A stretch of DNA of 64,000 bases from Gemmatimonadales bacterium (GTDB lineage: Bacteria; Gemmatimonadota; Gemmatimonadetes; Gemmatimonadales; GWC2-71-9): the NCBI GenBank assembly GCA_038321865.1, contig JBBQFH010000009.1, positions 32,001 to 96,000 of the forward strand, read 5' to 3'. The stretch's first letter is position 1; every line of letters starts with the position of its first letter. A program made the translations under genes and the position numbers. Below, in pieces: positions 24,341 through 30,178 of the stretch. Below the pieces are notes generated by a model. It was not told where the DNA came from and made no database searches. It was given only the letters and a program-made list of their open reading frames with translations.

Positions 24341-25099
24341 ATGAGCGCGCTGATCACGCTGCTCACCGATTTTTCCAACGCCGATTCCTACGTCGCGGAG
24401 ATGAAGGGCGTGCTGCTGAGTGCGCTCCCCGCGGCGACACTGGTGGATGTGACGCATCTGATTCCGCCGGGCGATGTGCGGAGCGCCGCTCACGTACTTG
24501 CCCGGGTCTGGCGCCGTTTCCCGGCGGGCACCGTGCATCTCGCCATCGTGGACCCGGGCGTCGGCACCGCACGGGCGGCGCTGGCGGTGTCCACCCGCGG
24601 CCACTACTTCGTCGGCCCCGACAACGGCGTGCTCACGCCCATCCTAAAGGACGAGGTCGACATCGTGGCGCTGCCGACGCCGGCCGACGCCGCGCCGACG
24701 TTCCACGGCCGGGACCTGTTCGCGCCCGCCGCGGCCGCGATCGCGTCGGGTCGGCCCATGCGCTCGCTGGGTCCCCGCTTCACCGGCTTGCCCGTTCGCC
24801 TCACGTACACGGAGCCACATTACGAGGGTAAGAGCGTCGTCGGTGAGGTCGTATACGTCGACCGGTTCGGGACGCTGGTGACCAACCTGACGCCGGAGCT
24901 GGTGCCGCCGTATGCGCGGCTCGAGATCGAGGGCGTCGACGCCGGACCGCTCCGCCGCACGTTCGGGGACGTGCCGACGGGCGGCCTGGTGGCCTATCTC
25001 GGTTCCAACGGCGACGTGGAGGTGGCGGTGCGCGACGGCTCCGCGGCGCGGCGGCTGGGAATCGGCGTCGGCGGAAGGGTGCGCGCCCGGCTGGGCTGA
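24341..25099 (+). CDS. SAM hydroxide adenosyltransferase (DUF62 family)
   Basis: ITLLTDF, VDPGVG..R, GPDNG, TFHGRDLF, YVDRFG. Confidence 0.9.
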   Translation: MSALITLLTDFSNADSYVAEMKGVLLSALPAATLVDVTHLIPPGDVRSAAHVLARVWRRFPAGTVHLAIVDPGVGTARAALAVSTRGHYFVGPDNGVLTPILKDEVDIVALPTPADAAPTFHGRDLFAPAAAAIASGRPMRSLGPRFTGLPVRLTYTEPHYEGKSVVGEVVYVDRFGTLVTNLTPELVPPYARLEIEGVDAGPLRRTFGDVPTGGLVAYLGSNGDVEVAVRDGSAARRLGIGVGGRVRARLG

Positions 25100-25124
25100 G
25101 GGTTCACTCGACTCGGAGGCGGCG

Positions 25125-25967
25125 ATGCGTCCCCTGCTCGTGGCGCACCTGGTCGGCGCGGGGTGGGGCAGGCTGGCGCCGCTGGTGCCGACGGACGGCG
25201 CGGTCTACGCGATCCTGTTCATCGCGATCACGCTGCTCTTCCTCAAGCGGTGCGGCGATGTCGGACTGCAGGCGGAGGAGTCCCTCGGTGGGGCGGTCAG
25301 CGGCGCAGGCGGCGCAATCGCCGGCAGCCGGCTGTTCTTCCTGATCACCACCGGCGCGCTGGTCCGCACCTCTCCGGCGCAGTGGGTCAATCTCGGCGGC
25401 GGCACGGCGTCGTGGGGCGCATACCTCGGTGGCATTGCGGGTCTCGCGACGTTCTGCCGGTTCTCGTCGGCGTCGTTCTGGGTCATGGCCGACGTCGGAG
25501 CCTCCTGCGCCGGGCTGAGCGAGGTCATCGGACGCTGGGCATGCCTCCTTGCCGGCGATGATTTCGGCCGGGTCAGCACGCTGCCGTGGGCCATCCACTT
25601 CCCGCCCGGCAGCTTCGCGTACCGCGCGCATGCGGCGCGAGGGCTGCTGGAGGCCGGCGCCACGCAGTCGCTCGCCGTGCATCCGCTGCAGATCTATCTC
25701 ATGCTGAATGCCGCCGTCGTGTTCGCGCTGACGACGCTCGCGTGGCGCCGCTGGCGGAACGCACCCGGCCGCACGCTCGCCACCTTTCTGCTGCTGCACG
25801 GCGCGACGCGATTCTGCTGGGAATTTCTCCGTGATCCTGATGCCGGCGGCGCGCGCGGCCTGCTGTCAGTGTCGCAGTGGACCTGTCTGGGAATGGTGGC
25901 GGCGGGAGTCCTGCTGGCGATACGCCTGCGCGGAATGCGGAGCGAAGTGCCGGCCGCCGCATCGTGA
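25125..25967 (+). CDS. Divergent prolipoprotein diacylglyceryl transferase (Lgt) family protein
   Basis: GRWACLLAGDDFGR..LPWAI.FP, VHPLQIY, RFCWEFLR; GGAGG RBS 5 nt before ATG. Confidence 0.8.
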   Translation: MRPLLVAHLVGAGWGRLAPLVPTDGAVYAILFIAITLLFLKRCGDVGLQAEESLGGAVSGAGGAIAGSRLFFLITTGALVRTSPAQWVNLGGGTASWGAYLGGIAGLATFCRFSSASFWVMADVGASCAGLSEVIGRWACLLAGDDFGRVSTLPWAIHFPPGSFAYRAHAARGLLEAGATQSLAVHPLQIYLMLNAAVVFALTTLAWRRWRNAPGRTLATFLLLHGATRFCWEFLRDPDAGGARGLLSVSQWTCLGMVAAGVLLAIRLRGMRSEVPAAAS

Positions 25968-25987
25968 TGCGGCGGCCTCCCCGCCAA

Positions 25988-26101
25988 TCAGTTCGGTGCC
26001 GAGTACGATTTGCAGGCGGCGAGGGTCACCAGGCCACTGAAGACCATCAGCACCAGCACCAGCAGGCGCGCGCGCAGGCTCTGCGGAACGAAGGAACGCA
26101 T
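25988..26101 (-). CDS. 37-aa micro-prolipoprotein MRSFVPQSLRARLLVLVLMVFSGLVTLAACKSYSAPN
   Basis: AGGAGG 5 nt before ATG; basic n-region, hydrophobic h-region, LAAC lipobox; below the ORF-track length cut-off. Confidence 0.75.
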   Translation of the reverse strand: MRSFVPQSLRARLLVLVLMVFSGLVTLAACKSYSAPN

Positions 26102-26185
26102 CCTGTCCTCCTGAGTGAATCGGCGTCGCCCGGTACCGGGATGGCACCGGATCGGCCGGAAAACCTACGGGTGAGACCTGCCGCC

Positions 26186-26214
26186 AACATGCAGCCCGGC
26201 CTGCGGCGGGGCAA
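26186..26214 (-). promoter_or_regulatory. Candidate sigma70-type promoter TTGCCC-N17-CATGTT for the micro-lipoprotein
   Basis: Correct spacing in the intergenic region; weak -10. Confidence 0.35.
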
Positions 26215-26224
26215 GGCCGCCCGG

Positions 26225-26836
26225 TCAGGGAGGCGCGGCGGCGAAACCGCCGCGGAGCCGCAGCAGCGCTCGGCGGAAGAACCCGAACAGCTTCCAGATG
26301 ATGAACGTCGCCAGCACGACCAGCACGATCACGATCGCGCCGGTTAGCACCGGATGCGTCGAAGCCAGCCAGCTCAGGCCGATAACGATCGCATCCTCGC
26401 CGAGGCTCAACGCCCAGTTGCTGAACGGCTCGGGACTGGTGTTCGCCGCCGCACGCATGGACGCCTTCGCGCCGTGGGACGAGAGTGCCACGCCCCCCGC
26501 CAGCAACGCCGCCGCCAGCTTCCATGTCTCGGGCACCGCACCGAACGCGCTGTAGCCGATGAGTGCGGCCGCGGGCGGCCGGATGAAGGTGTGCACGGCG
26601 TCCCAGGCGCTGTCCACGACCGGAATCTTGTCGGCGACGAATTCAATCACGAACATCACCGCCGCGATGCCGATGATGAGCGGATTGGCCAGAATCTGGA
26701 GTGACGCGGGCAGCTGGACGACCCCGAAGCGCTGGAACAGCCCGGCGGCGGCCACCGTGGCGTAGAGATTCAAACCCGAGGCGAACGACGTACCGAGGGT
26801 GAAGCCGAGCGTCTGGAGCGGGCTCAGTTCACCCAC
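26225..26836 (-). CDS. DUF4126 family membrane protein
   Basis: ASGLNLYA, EFVADKIP.VDS.WD.VHTFIRP, SPEPFSN..LSLGED. Confidence 0.88.
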   Translation of the reverse strand: MGELSPLQTLGFTLGTSFASGLNLYATVAAAGLFQRFGVVQLPASLQILANPLIIGIAAVMFVIEFVADKIPVVDSAWDAVHTFIRPPAAALIGYSAFGAVPETWKLAAALLAGGVALSSHGAKASMRAAANTSPEPFSNWALSLGEDAIVIGLSWLASTHPVLTGAIVIVLVVLATFIIWKLFGFFRRALLRLRGGFAAAPP

Positions 26837-27660
26837 TCGACGTCGACGCCGCCGAAGGCGGTCGCGAGGGCGAGATCGATGTGACGGGATGCGCGGGCAT
26901 AACCCGGAGAAAGATACACCTTCCCCTGCCGTGTCCAGCCTCCGCTGGAAAAACTGGACAGGAATCGGTCTACCGTCAGGCGGACGCCGAGGCCGCGCGG
27001 AATACGGAGGGTGAGCGCGCCGATCGCCAGGTGAACATCCAGCCTCGCGTCTGCCGGCCACGCTCCGGTCAGGTCGAGCAGCGTCGTACCCACGCCGCCG
27101 TCGAACCGCACCAGCTGACATCGGGCATTGCCGAGCGCGAGCAGCGAAATGTCCGCCGCCCCCGCGCTCAGGTCGGCGCGCTCGCAGCGGGACGAGTTGG
27201 GTCGGGAAAAACGGACGGTCGTCCGGCTCGCGCCGGTGGAAAGGCGCAGCCGGGTGAGCTGGAGCCCGCCGAGCTCGATATCGCCGTCGCCCGCTCCCAG
27301 CTCCAGCGCGAGGCTGAGCGCCACCCGGGACGAGAGCGCGAGAAATCCGCTCTGCTCGACTCGGCGGCGCGAGGACACGCGGAACCCGGTCCCGACGCTC
27401 TCAAGTCCGAGCCGCGCGACACCTGCCGCGGCGTCGAACGCGCTCACTGGAGCGAAGCGGTCGGAATCGTAGGTCACATGCATCCGATACAGGTCGCCGG
27501 CGGCCGACGGCACGATACGGAGACTGCCCGCCTCGTAGGCCACCCGCGCCTCCAGCCGGCTTTCACCGTGGAGTTGCCGTGACGTGGTAAAGTCCCGTGT
27601 CGTCTGCGCCGCCGCGGTCACCGGCGCGAAAAGCGCGAACGCGAGCGCCAGACGGCTCAC
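26824..27660 (-). CDS. Secreted LiaF/LiaG-like (toast-rack, DUF2154/DUF4097-like) beta-solenoid protein
   Basis: Signal peptide; repeated GAG/GAS/GAA/GVG beta motifs; GTGA overlap start. Confidence 0.65.
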   Translation of the reverse strand: MSRLALAFALFAPVTAAAQTTRDFTTSRQLHGESRLEARVAYEAGSLRIVPSAAGDLYRMHVTYDSDRFAPVSAFDAAAGVARLGLESVGTGFRVSSRRRVEQSGFLALSSRVALSLALELGAGDGDIELGGLQLTRLRLSTGASRTTVRFSRPNSSRCERADLSAGAADISLLALGNARCQLVRFDGGVGTTLLDLTGAWPADARLDVHLAIGALTLRIPRGLGVRLTVDRFLSSFSSGGWTRQGKVYLSPGYARASRHIDLALATAFGGVDVEWVN

Positions 27661-28940
27661 GGCCCGCCGATCGGGCTGCGGGCCCCGCCCGGGCGTCGCA
27701 CCGCCGGCACACCGAATTGCGGCGTGGCCCACAGGTATTCGTCGGTGAGGGCCTCCGGCGGGATGATCCGTCCAGCGAAGTTTTCCCGGAGGCCCGCCCG
27801 GCTCAGCAGTGCCGCGCCGAATCCCGCGGTGCCGAGGAGCCAGGTGACGAGGATGGCGGCGCCGCGGATCAGGTCCCCGGCGACGGGCACCCACCCGAAC
27901 AGCGCCCACGCCGCCCAGAGCGCGAGCGTGGCGACCAGACCGGTCGTCAGGAAGCGATAGCTGCTGGGCGCGCCCATCGTCACGCCCCGCGCCATGCGAC
28001 GGCGGACGTAGGTCTCACCCATCGCGTGCGCCACCGCGAGATAGCCGCCCACGATGGCGATCACGGCAAGCAGGACGTAGGCGACGACGGCAAAAGGCAG
28101 CAGCAGAATCCCCGCCACGCTCAGGACCAGCCCGACCACCACCATGCCGAACGTCGGCAGCAGCAGCACCTGCCCGAGCAGTCCCGTCACGAAGGCGCGC
28201 CCGAAGGAGTGCGAGACCGTGTCCGACACGATCTCGAGATTGTGATGCCCGAACGTCGCGAGCCCCAGCCCGAGGAACGCCAGCGTCATGGCCACGCCGG
28301 CGAGACCGGCCAGCCGCCGAACGGTCAGCGCCAAAGCCGACACCGGCGCGCCGGCCGCTGCCGCGGGCACCGCCGCGCTCAGCGTCCGGATCTCACCGTC
28401 CACCACGCCCCCGTCAACCACCCGGGCGACACCGTGCACGACCAGCACGTCGCCGGCGATGACCGCGCCGGGGTGCACGGTCACATTGCCGTCGAGCGCC
28501 ACCAGATTGCCCTGCACGCGCCCGTAGATGTCGGCATCGCCGCGCACCACGAGCAGATGCCCCCGGACCGTCTGGTCGGAGCCCACGCTGTAGTTGCCAA
28601 GGCGCGCCTGTCCGTTGGGGACCGTGACGCGGATCTGGGATTCGGCCAGACGATTCAGCGGGGCGAAACGGGACTCGATCGCGGCGGGCCGGCTGAGATC
28701 GCTCAAATCGATGGTGAGGTCGGAGGGACCGGCCGGCGGCATCGGCTGTGGATGCGCCGCGGGGGCCTGGCCCGGGCGCGGTCCGTCCTGCGCCTCGTGA
28801 TCACCTCGCAGCTGCTGGATGATTCCCCAGATGTCCCGCGCCGCGGTCAGCGCCGCCGTGCCGCGGTCGGCGGCGGCAGCGGGGCGGGAGATCGCGAGCA
28901 GCAGCGCGAGTGTCGCGAACGCCCGGTTACGCGCGCGCAT
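27657..28940 (-). CDS. Membrane protein with bactofilin-like beta-helix and C-terminal TM bundle
   Basis: Signal peptide; G.V.G.LV repeats (VRGHLLVVRGDADIYGRVQGNLVALDG); several TM helices. Confidence 0.7.
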   Translation of the reverse strand: MRARNRAFATLALLLAISRPAAAADRGTAALTAARDIWGIIQQLRGDHEAQDGPRPGQAPAAHPQPMPPAGPSDLTIDLSDLSRPAAIESRFAPLNRLAESQIRVTVPNGQARLGNYSVGSDQTVRGHLLVVRGDADIYGRVQGNLVALDGNVTVHPGAVIAGDVLVVHGVARVVDGGVVDGEIRTLSAAVPAAAAGAPVSALALTVRRLAGLAGVAMTLAFLGLGLATFGHHNLEIVSDTVSHSFGRAFVTGLLGQVLLLPTFGMVVVGLVLSVAGILLLPFAVVAYVLLAVIAIVGGYLAVAHAMGETYVRRRMARGVTMGAPSSYRFLTTGLVATLALWAAWALFGWVPVAGDLIRGAAILVTWLLGTAGFGAALLSRAGLRENFAGRIIPPEALTDEYLWATPQFGVPAVRRPGGARSPIGGP

Positions 28941-29535
28941 GGGAGACCGGCCCGCTCGGCACCGCCATCAGCTTCCGCAGGGCGAAGAGCCCGCTCACGT
29001 AGGCCAGCGACAACAGCGCCGAGATCGCCGCGAGCCGAGCTGGTGAGCCGAGGGCTTCCCGCAGGCCGGCATACCACGGCTGCTGAATGATGCCGGAGAC
29101 CAGCGCCCGCATGCCGCCCCAGGCCCACGCGGCCGCCGTGCCCGAGATCCAGGTCCCGGCGGCCGCGATCGCCTGTGGATGCGACAGGCTCCACCCGACG
29201 CTCGCTGCCATCGAGCCCAGCACGACCACCGCGATCATGGCGGCGGCGGCGATCGCCTTCCGCGTGCCGAAGAGCCGCCGGCGCGCGCTCTGCATGGACC
29301 GGAGGGCGAACGGATCCGGGACGGCGACCGACGCCATGACGCGGTCGGCAAATCCGGCGGACGGGCTGAACGCGGTGAGCGCGGCAAGATGGCGGGCGAG
29401 GATTCGTTCGGTCCGGGCGGTATCACGACACTCGTCGCAGGCATCGAGGTGCGCCTGCTCCGATTGGCCGAGGTGTCCGGCCAGCCAGGCATCGAGGTCG
29501 TCGAGCGACAGATGCGCGTCGGGGCGTCGGTTCAT
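28927..29535 (-). CDS. Zinc-binding (ZAS) anti-sigma factor, RsiW-like
   Basis: H...HLDACDEC motif followed by TM helices; directly downstream of ECF sigma. Confidence 0.85.
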   Translation of the reverse strand: MNRRPDAHLSLDDLDAWLAGHLGQSEQAHLDACDECRDTARTERILARHLAALTAFSPSAGFADRVMASVAVPDPFALRSMQSARRRLFGTRKAIAAAAMIAVVVLGSMAASVGWSLSHPQAIAAAGTWISGTAAAWAWGGMRALVSGIIQQPWYAGLREALGSPARLAAISALLSLAYVSGLFALRKLMAVPSGPVSHARA

Positions 29536-29548
29536 GAGTGAGCCCTCC

Positions 29549-29575
29549 TACGGGGCCGTTCCAGCGAAGGTTTCA
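29549..29575 (-). promoter_or_regulatory. SigW-type ECF promoter TGAAAC-N17-CGTA upstream of the anti-sigma gene
   Basis: Exact motif; its TGA is the sigma gene stop codon. Confidence 0.7.
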
Positions 29576-30178
29576 CTGCTTCAGGTGCGCCAGACTGAGT
29601 CGCAATTCGTTCCGTGCGCGGTGGATGTAGGTCTTCACGGTGCCGAGGGGAAGTCCGAGGATCTCGGCGATTTCCTCATACGCCCGGCCTTCGACATGAC
29701 GCAGGAGAATGCAGGACCGGTATTCCGGGCGCAGCCGCGCGATCGCGACCTCGATCTCCCCGCCCAGCTCGCGCGCCTCGACCTCCTCGAGCGCCGTCTC
29801 CTGGCGGTCGCCGATCTGCAGCGCGGTCGCCTCGATCGCTTCGGGAGTCTCGGCGTGAGGGGATCCGTCGAGCGAGAGCGTGTCCAGCTCGCGCCGCCGG
29901 AGATGATCGATCGCCGCGTTGTTGGCGATCTTGAAGATCCAGGAAGAAAACTTGAACTCGGGGCGGTACGACTCGATCGCGTTGAGCGCCTTGACGAACG
30001 TCTCCTGCGCCAGGTCTTCGGCCAGCTCACGGTCGCGCACCATCCGGTAGACCAGTGAGAAGATCGGACGCTCGTAGCGGCGCACCAGTTCGCGGTAGGC
30101 CGTCTCCTGCCCGTGGCGTGCCAGCGCCACGACCTCCTGGTCGGTGGCGCCCGCCAGATCGACGCGGCCGCTAGGCAT
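29573..30178 (-). CDS. ECF sigma factor, SigW/RpoE-like
   Basis: AEDLAQETFVKA, KFSSWIFKIANN..IDHLRR, YEEIA..LGLPLGTVKTYIHRAR. Confidence 0.95.
   Translation of the reverse strand: MPSGRVDLAGATDQEVVALARHGQETAYRELVRRYERPIFSLVYRMVRDRELAEDLAQETFVKALNAIESYRPEFKFSSWIFKIANNAAIDHLRRRELDTLSLDGSPHAETPEAIEATALQIGDRQETALEEVEARELGGEIEVAIARLRPEYRSCILLRHVEGRAYEEIAEILGLPLGTVKTYIHRARNELRLSLAHLKQ

Follow-up and report, generated by a model that had tools for sequence, protein, structure and literature searches.

The closest described system to the gene pair considered here is the lipoprotein maturation pathway (Lgt, LspA and Lnt), within which second copies of lgt are known, for example in Streptomyces coelicolor, in Mycobacterium smegmatis and on plasmids of the Bacillus cereus group. 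According to a 2026 study, two lgt copies are carried by about 1,300 of 12,956 genomes, plasmid copies are located with type IV secretion lipoproteins, and the substrate specificity of Lgt is linked to its arm and head domains (PMC13251419). Very small lipoproteins have also been described. The entericidins EcnA and EcnB are small chromosomal lipoproteins that are sometimes termed lipopeptides, and Atu8019, an Agrobacterium protein of the entericidin family, has a 53-amino-acid (aa) precursor and a mature part of 32 aa, is surface-exposed and occurs in vesicles (PMC7296081). PflE of Campylobacter jejuni has a precursor of 57 aa and a processed form of 41 aa, and a cellular role that depends on its lipobox has been demonstrated (bioRxiv 10.1101/2025.04.02.646747). 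Here we analyse a 64,000-nucleotide (nt) stretch of DNA, the window, from a Gemmatimonadales bacterium (GenBank assembly GCA_038321865.1, contig JBBQFH010000009.1, positions 32,001 to 96,000 of the forward strand), and within it a minus-strand open reading frame (ORF) of 37 codons, the micro-ORF, which lies tail-to-tail with a second gene of the Lgt family, LgtP. An earlier note, made from the letters of the sequence by a model, had singled out this pair as a candidate ribosomal lipopeptide system.

The pair is a variant of the known lipoprotein pathway: LgtP belongs to PF01790 and keeps the catalytic arginines, and the precursor has an n-region, an h-region and a lipobox cysteine. It departs from that pathway as described in two respects: no lipoprotein that we found described comes near the small size of the putative substrate, and the LgtP clade recurs beside tiny lipoprotein genes that are unrelated in sequence. 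With the plasmid copies of lgt it shares an extra lgt that adjoins particular lipoprotein genes (PMC13251419). The entericidins differ from the micro-protein, which has no Pfam match to them, in the size of the mature part (32 aa in Atu8019, 8–14 aa here) and in having no link to a second Lgt. PflE is likewise a tiny lipoprotein, but its sequence and context are different, its processed form is five times longer, and it has no dedicated Lgt. A full-text literature search, mostly at the level of titles and abstracts, turned up no account of tiny lipoproteins that are paired with an Lgt paralog, nor any of Lgt in Gemmatimonadota.

In this analysis, we draw on homologue searches, on comparisons within the genus and the family and on the residues and layout of the two proteins to determine what kind of gene pair this is. 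The reading that we prefer, and to which we give a probability of about one half, is that a real micro-prolipoprotein has been inherited together with a second, catalytically plausible Lgt as a two-gene module and is likely to be lipidated by an Lgt-type enzyme, LgtP being favoured. Throughout the text, positions without a prefix are those of the window, and positions in other genomes are preceded by the handle of the locus or contig.

A conserved micro-prolipoprotein gene

The micro-ORF is a genuine gene of a small micro-prolipoprotein family, neither a chance ORF nor a fragment. Its product (MRSF...CKSYSAPN, 37 aa) begins at an ATG at 26099–26101 on the minus strand, preceded at 5 nt by AGGAGG just as the earlier note had read it, and reading the sequence upstream of this ATG revealed no other in-frame start. 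The n-region, MRSFVPQSLRAR, has a net charge of +3, the charge also carried by the first 12 residues, and R2 is present within the first seven. The hydrophobic core, LLVLVLMVFSGLVTL, is uncharged and runs into the lipobox L-A-A-C, the hydrophobic stretch measuring 17 residues, and Cys30 falls inside the 15–35 range in which the cysteine of prolipoprotein signals is found. At the matching place in a congener, G036, there is an ORF of 43 aa, with GGAGG in front of it at the position equivalent to AGGAGG.

Homologues were searched for with this 43-aa orthologue as the query and then with a three-row profile on 1.84 billion representatives. The profile returned six proteins at E ≤ 0.001, four of them 37–43 aa long (the window peptide, P0002, P0004 and P0005) and the other two weak matches, to signal-like stretches of proteins of 507 and 247 aa; no longer homologue scored among proteins of 77–2000 aa, which is weak evidence. 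Counting P0001, the family has five members, all of 37–43 aa, and the relatives are 43–65% identical to the window micro-protein. Every member has a cysteine at position 30 and a K/R-containing n-region, and every member matches a PROSITE-style lipoprotein-signal pattern. The lipoboxes read LAAC, LAAC, VSAC, VAAC and TTAC, canonical in four of the five, with TTAC atypical at −3, and the tails after the predicted cleavage site measure 8, 11, 14, 14 and 14 aa. The micro-prolipoprotein proposed in the earlier note is in this way conserved, and no relative was found that continues past the stop as a longer lipoprotein. Its description as unannotated fails, because the exact 37-aa sequence is already in a public protein collection (sources NCBI and Logan). 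The family is visible only because gene callers retained ORFs of 37–43 aa, a point that bears on the annotation of small proteins in general. Pfam gave no family at E ≤ 0.01 for the window peptide and none at E ≤ 1 for the 43-aa orthologue, for which NCBIfam gave only sub-threshold matches, to the signal regions of other small-lipoprotein families.

Open frames are abundant in G+C-rich DNA such as this (the G+C content of the window is about 0.70) and the substitutions between species show no excess at third positions, both of which would suit a chance ORF or one that is not translated. We nevertheless consider that explanation highly improbable. The start codon, the ribosome-binding site, the frame, the position of the cysteine and the length class are all kept across the five sequences despite their divergence, and the G+C content at third codon positions (GC3) peaks in the reading frame, both in the window (0.84 against 0.62 and 0.49 in the other frames) and in the orthologue (0.93 against 0.56 and 0.63). 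ORFs of this quality are also rare: a rule-based lipoprotein-signal scan of the whole 3.4-Mb genome listed 76 small lipoprotein-signal-like ORFs, only 8 of which, the micro-ORF included, combine an ATG with a Shine-Dalgarno-like site.

The invariant columns of the family (M1, P6, R10, R12, L13, L18, G23, V25, T26, A29 and C30) all belong to the signal peptide or are the cysteine itself, and the tail is variable: all that recurs in it is a loosely kept K-S-(D)-Y-x-(A)-P motif, which three lineages share. As a control for signal peptides, a comparison of the window with 80 kb of congener sequence gave a single other lipoprotein orthologue pair, identical at 12 of 30 positions, which is too few for a calibration. 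Invariant columns that, the cysteine apart, are confined to residues 1–29, together with a tail that varies in length and sequence, could point to the membrane segment as the functional part, either as an uncleaved single-pass micro-protein or as a signal peptide that is active after its release, for instance by regulating LgtP or partnering it, the tail being incidental. We regard this as unlikely: the lipobox and Cys30 are retained in all five members, and a 17-residue stretch is short for a stable helix.

LgtP, a plausibly active second Lgt

LgtP scores 120.4 bits on PF01790 (LGT), for which the cut-off is 24.9, and 74.4 bits on the equivalog TIGR00544, for which the cut-off is 118.9 and the genome's other copy reaches 116.1. 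That other copy lies on another contig and reaches 181 bits on PF01790. Since the genome holds this better-scoring LGT match, LgtP is an extra copy, which upholds the earlier view of the gene as an Lgt paralog. The genome further carries a single lspA, as well as LolA. An alignment of LgtP with the structure of E. coli Lgt (5AZB) has an E-value of 1.5e-9, and the E. coli residues R143, G154 and R239, which are essential there, together with E243 and R246, correspond to R137, G148, R229, E233 and R236 of LgtP, which are invariant in five members of its clade. Differences from the E. coli enzyme include H103 to W, N146 to C and E151 to D, positions at which the canonical copy of the same genome has Y, C and D. 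All three states are within the variation described for Lgt (PMC13251419), and H103W and N146C do not exclude activity, since both replacements are described there in functional or distant Lgts. On the strength of these residues, LgtP is plausibly active.

The orthologues of LgtP begin at the same MRP... position, and in the window a gap of 25 nt separates the gene from the stop of SAM_HAT (25099). A predicted complex of LgtP with the micro-protein (five-row alignment for each partner) scored 0.00 and 0.01 in runs made without controls, values that speak neither for nor against an interaction. A metagenome scan with the LgtP protein gave 44 loci, none of which is a close LgtP relative: all have at most 44% identity and nearly all 26–35%, the range that is also observed for canonical lgt.

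Inheritance of the pair within the genus

LgtP and the micro-ORF are co-inherited as a two-gene module in the genus, in which we compared six genomes (G000, the window's own, with G036, G153, G193, G224 and G103). The two genes stand tail-to-tail in G000 and again in G036, where they overlap by 31 nt and where SAM_HAT and other upstream synteny is kept, including genes labelled NrnA-, NifU- and Mrp-like from reading of the sequence and not from Pfam. LgtP is interrupted by a contig end in G153. In G193 and G224 SAM_HAT is directly convergent with DUF4126, in G103 a kinase gene is at the site, and in these three genomes, which are 66–87% complete, neither LgtP nor the micro-ORF was found genome-wide. 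The 1.1-kb segment that holds both genes is present or absent as a whole among the congeners and is an indel between two convergent operons. Its base composition carries no foreign signature, the GC content being equal to that of the flanks.

The micro-ORF abuts the 3' end of LgtP, and the overlap in the congener brings the two closer still, as might be seen had a longer lipoprotein gene been cut when LgtP inserted and left the micro-ORF as its 5' remnant. Such an origin is scarcely credible, given that all five family members end 8–14 residues after the cysteine, that a longer relative was not found and that the site is free of any such gene in those congeners that lack LgtP.

Tiny lipobox genes at other loci of the LgtP clade

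Of the 401 genomes sampled from the family, 21 have genes of the LgtP clade (E ≤ 1e-30), which are spread over 8 of 78 genera, and a scan of species-representative genomes yielded 31 related loci. An LgtP tree was built from 30 rows after three short or frameshifted rows had been dropped; in it the 19 Gemmatimonadota rows form one clade with support of 99/99 and two subclades. The LgtP clade is confined to Gemmatimonadota, and relatives of it occur in records from Calditrichota. For the census of neighbours, an ORF was counted if it satisfied the lipoprotein-signal rule, had a ribosome-binding-like site, had its highest GC3 in frame and lay at most 300 nt from the Lgt gene with an overlap of at most 60 nt. 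One of the control loci, L022, belongs to G014, a genome that is unpublished, and the tallies over 401 genomes include the unpublished G068, G187, G198, G238 and G382.

A lipobox ORF lies within 300 nt at 11 of the 21 Gemmatimonadota LgtP loci. Nine of these ORFs are shorter than 90 aa, and eight of the nine were judged credible (the match at L074 looks false). The canonical-lgt loci of the same family have a lipobox ORF in 2 of 26 cases, of 155–158 aa, and a small one in none of the 26. The co-occurrence with this Lgt clade, whose absence the earlier note had named as a refutation, holds at both levels, as one indel unit in the genus and as an enrichment of tiny lipobox genes at loci of the clade.

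The credible tiny neighbours belong to three unrelated sequence families at three places on the LgtP tree. The 37–43-aa family is convergent with LgtP (window and L072), and so is an 81-aa Cys-rich lipobox ORF (L077:3969–4214, minus strand), which lies 102 nt from its LgtP-clade gene and is unrelated to the other two families. The third is a Cys-rich family of 50–53 aa that is divergent from LgtP (L082, L084, L085, L086 and L095; the small contigs L084 and L085 share a bin and are almost identical), with a remnant in L091 and a copy 1.5 kb off in L097. Its ORFs are flanked on one side by a gene for an AcrB-type pump and on the other by a GlpQ-like gene, and their mature parts are of the kind C-S-S-S-D-x-C-G-S-G-F-E-x-I-D-G-E-C-V-P. 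A six-frame search of the 401 genomes with this family found strong matches (at least 73 bits) at six loci in five genomes of one genus, and all six are on a contig with LgtP, five of them at about 110–200 nt and the sixth about 1.5 kb away. The 380 genomes that lack an LgtP-clade match gave no strong match, and neither did the five unpublished genomes of the tallies. On the best-supported account, the micro-ORF is genetically tied to LgtP, and the affinity of the LgtP clade for lipoprotein genes of very small size is a recurrent one.

This affinity has to be weighed against a neighbourhood that is hitch-hiking, in which the micro-lipoprotein is real but is lipidated by the housekeeping Lgt, and LgtP is a general spare or a condition-specific Lgt without a particular link to it. 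Second lgt copies are, after all, common (see the figures from PMC13251419 above), LgtP follows the SAM_HAT operon on the strand opposite to the micro-ORF, which means that the two are not co-transcribed, every association is a block of shared synteny, and ten of the 21 LgtP loci lack any lipobox neighbour. Hitch-hiking accounts less readily for the eight credible tiny lipobox genes at 21 LgtP loci against none at 26 canonical ones, for two unrelated tiny families found solely beside LgtP, for a pair that is gained or lost as a unit and for a family whose conserved part is the signal peptide, which is what an Lgt would read. We hold it to be possible but doubtful.

Several other observations weigh against a two-gene module in which LgtP is the favoured modifier. 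Those ten loci imply that LgtP needs no tiny partner, because each has an LgtP gene and no lipobox neighbour, and in genus g19 three genomes carry LgtP but give no strong match to the Cys-rich family. The independent associations number about three, not eight, because co-inheritance in one genus and synteny in another are single events each and amount to blocks of shared ancestry. The housekeeping Lgt could itself lipidate the micro-protein. For Lnt, the genome gave no match to TIGR00546, and at 89.85% completeness this does not show its absence. Over the first 30 codons in two species, the differences by codon position number 10, 9 and 13, with no third-position excess, and 14 codons are non-synonymous against 4 that are synonymous-only. 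Selection on the exact residues is, because of these counts, weak, and it is the class of residue that is kept, as is usual for signal peptides.

A possible route to a membrane-anchored lipopeptide

If the pair works as a two-gene module, we infer the following route from the layout of the precursor and the enzymes that the genome encodes. The arginine-rich N-terminus would stay in the cytoplasm and the 17-residue hydrophobic core would enter the inner membrane; with only 8 residues to translocate, the usual co-translational route may be unneeded. An Lgt-type enzyme would put diacylglycerol on Cys30, and the adjacent LgtP is favoured for this step because its clade repeatedly adjoins tiny lipoprotein genes. 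The single LspA would then cleave before Cys30. The end product, for which the earlier note conjectured a role as a signal, membrane modulator or antimicrobial, would be a membrane-anchored lipopeptide made of the lipid-bearing cysteine and 7 further residues here, or up to 13 in the relatives.

The pairing hints at the dedication of an enzyme to its substrate. Should it be functional, it would provide a cloneable test case for the substrate specificity of Lgt, and the lipoprotein pathway would be able to yield peptide-sized lipid conjugates, the shortest gene-encoded lipoproteins on record as far as we found. In a broader version, the LgtP clade would consist of dedicated lipidators of micro-prolipoproteins that are too short for co-translational export, each reading the unusually conserved signal peptide encoded next to it and acting together with LspA to give ribosomal diacylglyceryl lipopeptides of 8–14 residues. 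We offer this version tentatively and think it rather improbable; were it true, the lipoprotein machinery, and not non-ribosomal synthetases or peptide tailoring enzymes that transfer acyl groups, would be the source of a class of gene-encoded lipopeptides. Even without a functional pairing, the micro-ORF is a clean case of a conserved family of very small lipoproteins from an uncultured phylum.

The locus and its neighbours

The features of the locus are collected in Table 1 together with the Cys-rich ORFs of other LgtP-clade loci. The stop codons of the micro-ORF and LgtP are separated by 20 nt (25968–25987), the distance given in the earlier note. That note had also placed a GGCGG/CCGCC hairpin between the genes; this pair exists (25971–25975 and 25981–25985), but the dominant structure is the perfect 11-bp stem formed by GGCCGCCGCAT and ATGCGGCGGCC. 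Its energy is −31.1 and −31.4 kcal/mol by strand, with z only −1.76 and −1.99 in such G+C-rich DNA. The stem is a possible two-way terminator hairpin, has no T run and is not kept in the congener, in which the genes overlap. On the other side of the micro-ORF, a scan for promoters and terminators gave nothing relevant nearby, the 123-nt spacer folds no better than shuffled sequence, and an Rfam scan of 24500–27500 had no meaningful match.

Table 1. Features of the micro-ORF/LgtP locus in the window, and Cys-rich ORFs at other LgtP-clade loci (given as locus:positions)
Feature	Position	Strand	Basis or remark
LgtP ribosome-binding site GGAGG	25116–25120	plus	5 nt 5' of ATG; read from sequence
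LgtP, 280-aa Lgt-family second copy	25125–25967 (stop included)	plus	PF01790
Two-gene segment, LgtP + micro-ORF, 1.1 kb	25100–26224	both	present or absent as a whole among congeners
Perfect 11-bp inverted repeat, GGCCGCCGCAT cgtg ATGCGGCGGCC	25952–25977	both	spans LgtP stop; 10 nt past micro-ORF stop
Micro-prolipoprotein gene, 37 codons + stop	25988–26101	minus	ORF reading; homologues of 40/43/43/43 aa; GC3 0.84
Predicted mature part CKSYSAPN, 8 residues	25991–26014	minus	Cys30 codon 26012–26014; putative cleavage and lipidation
Signal peptide, residues 1–29	26015–26101	minus	n-region MRSFVPQSLRAR, core LLVLVLMVFSGLVTL, then lipobox L-A-A
Micro-ORF ribosome-binding site AGGAGG	26107–26112	minus	5 nt 5' of ATG; read from sequence
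Spacer, DUF4126 stop to micro-ORF start, 123 nt	26102–26224	minus	no recognised promoter, terminator or RNA family
DUF4126	26225–27121	minus	Pfam
LiaF-like	26824–27909	minus	Pfam
Bactofilin-like membrane protein (weak match)	27657–28940	minus	Pfam
Anti-sigma candidate	28927–29535	minus	Pfam
ECF sigma	29573–30178	minus	Pfam
Cys-rich ORF	L082:2734–2886	minus	
Cys-rich ORF	L084:1933–2091	minus	
Cys-rich ORF	L085:1932–2087	minus	
Cys-rich ORF	L086:2643–2804	minus	
Cys-rich ORF	L095:2560–2715	minus	
Cys-rich ORF	L097:1329–1520	minus	

Upstream on the same strand as the micro-ORF stands a five-gene extracytoplasmic function (ECF) sigma set (26225–30178, minus strand), which congeners retain whether they have the micro-ORF or not. 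In a Pfam scan, the eight neighbouring proteins matched SAM_HAT, DUF4126, LiaF-like, bactofilin-like or ECF sigma families, or had no match, and within the ECF set the matches are below the curated cut-offs except for the sigma domains and DUF4126. None of the eight is a radical SAM protein, and the related loci that were read likewise contain no radical SAM gene. The suggestion that the micro-ORF lies at the end of this operon stands as a description of position, co-directional and 123 nt past DUF4126, but not as one of membership: the operon ends without it in two congeners, and a third has 4 kb of genes in between. The micro-ORF is outside the ECF operon because the pair comes and goes as a unit between convergent operons.

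Some arrangements at related loci are recorded here in their own right. In the congener G036 (L034:8900–12400), DUF4126 is replaced by about 4 kb that hold two tandem TolB-like beta-propeller lipoproteins, near-duplicates of 295 and 298 aa, and a 473-aa lipoprotein-like ORF. Among genes of the LgtP clade, in-frame TGA stops occur at G219:C17:303040–303882 (one) and G291:C1:1018604–1019383 (four), and frame breaks are present in some assemblies (L091, L095 and L097); the broken genes may be assembly errors or decaying copies. In another genus, LgtP (L089, 3001–3852) begins 24 nt after the gene for a 356-aa lipoprotein on the same strand (L089:1907–2977, plus), and a GDSL-type lipoprotein gene comes just before the latter. 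The two contigs L037 and L038 of G018 (4,120 and 4,123 bp) have the same four-gene arrangement, with small ORFs that are about 85% identical, which suggests that two strains share the bin and speaks less for a duplication.

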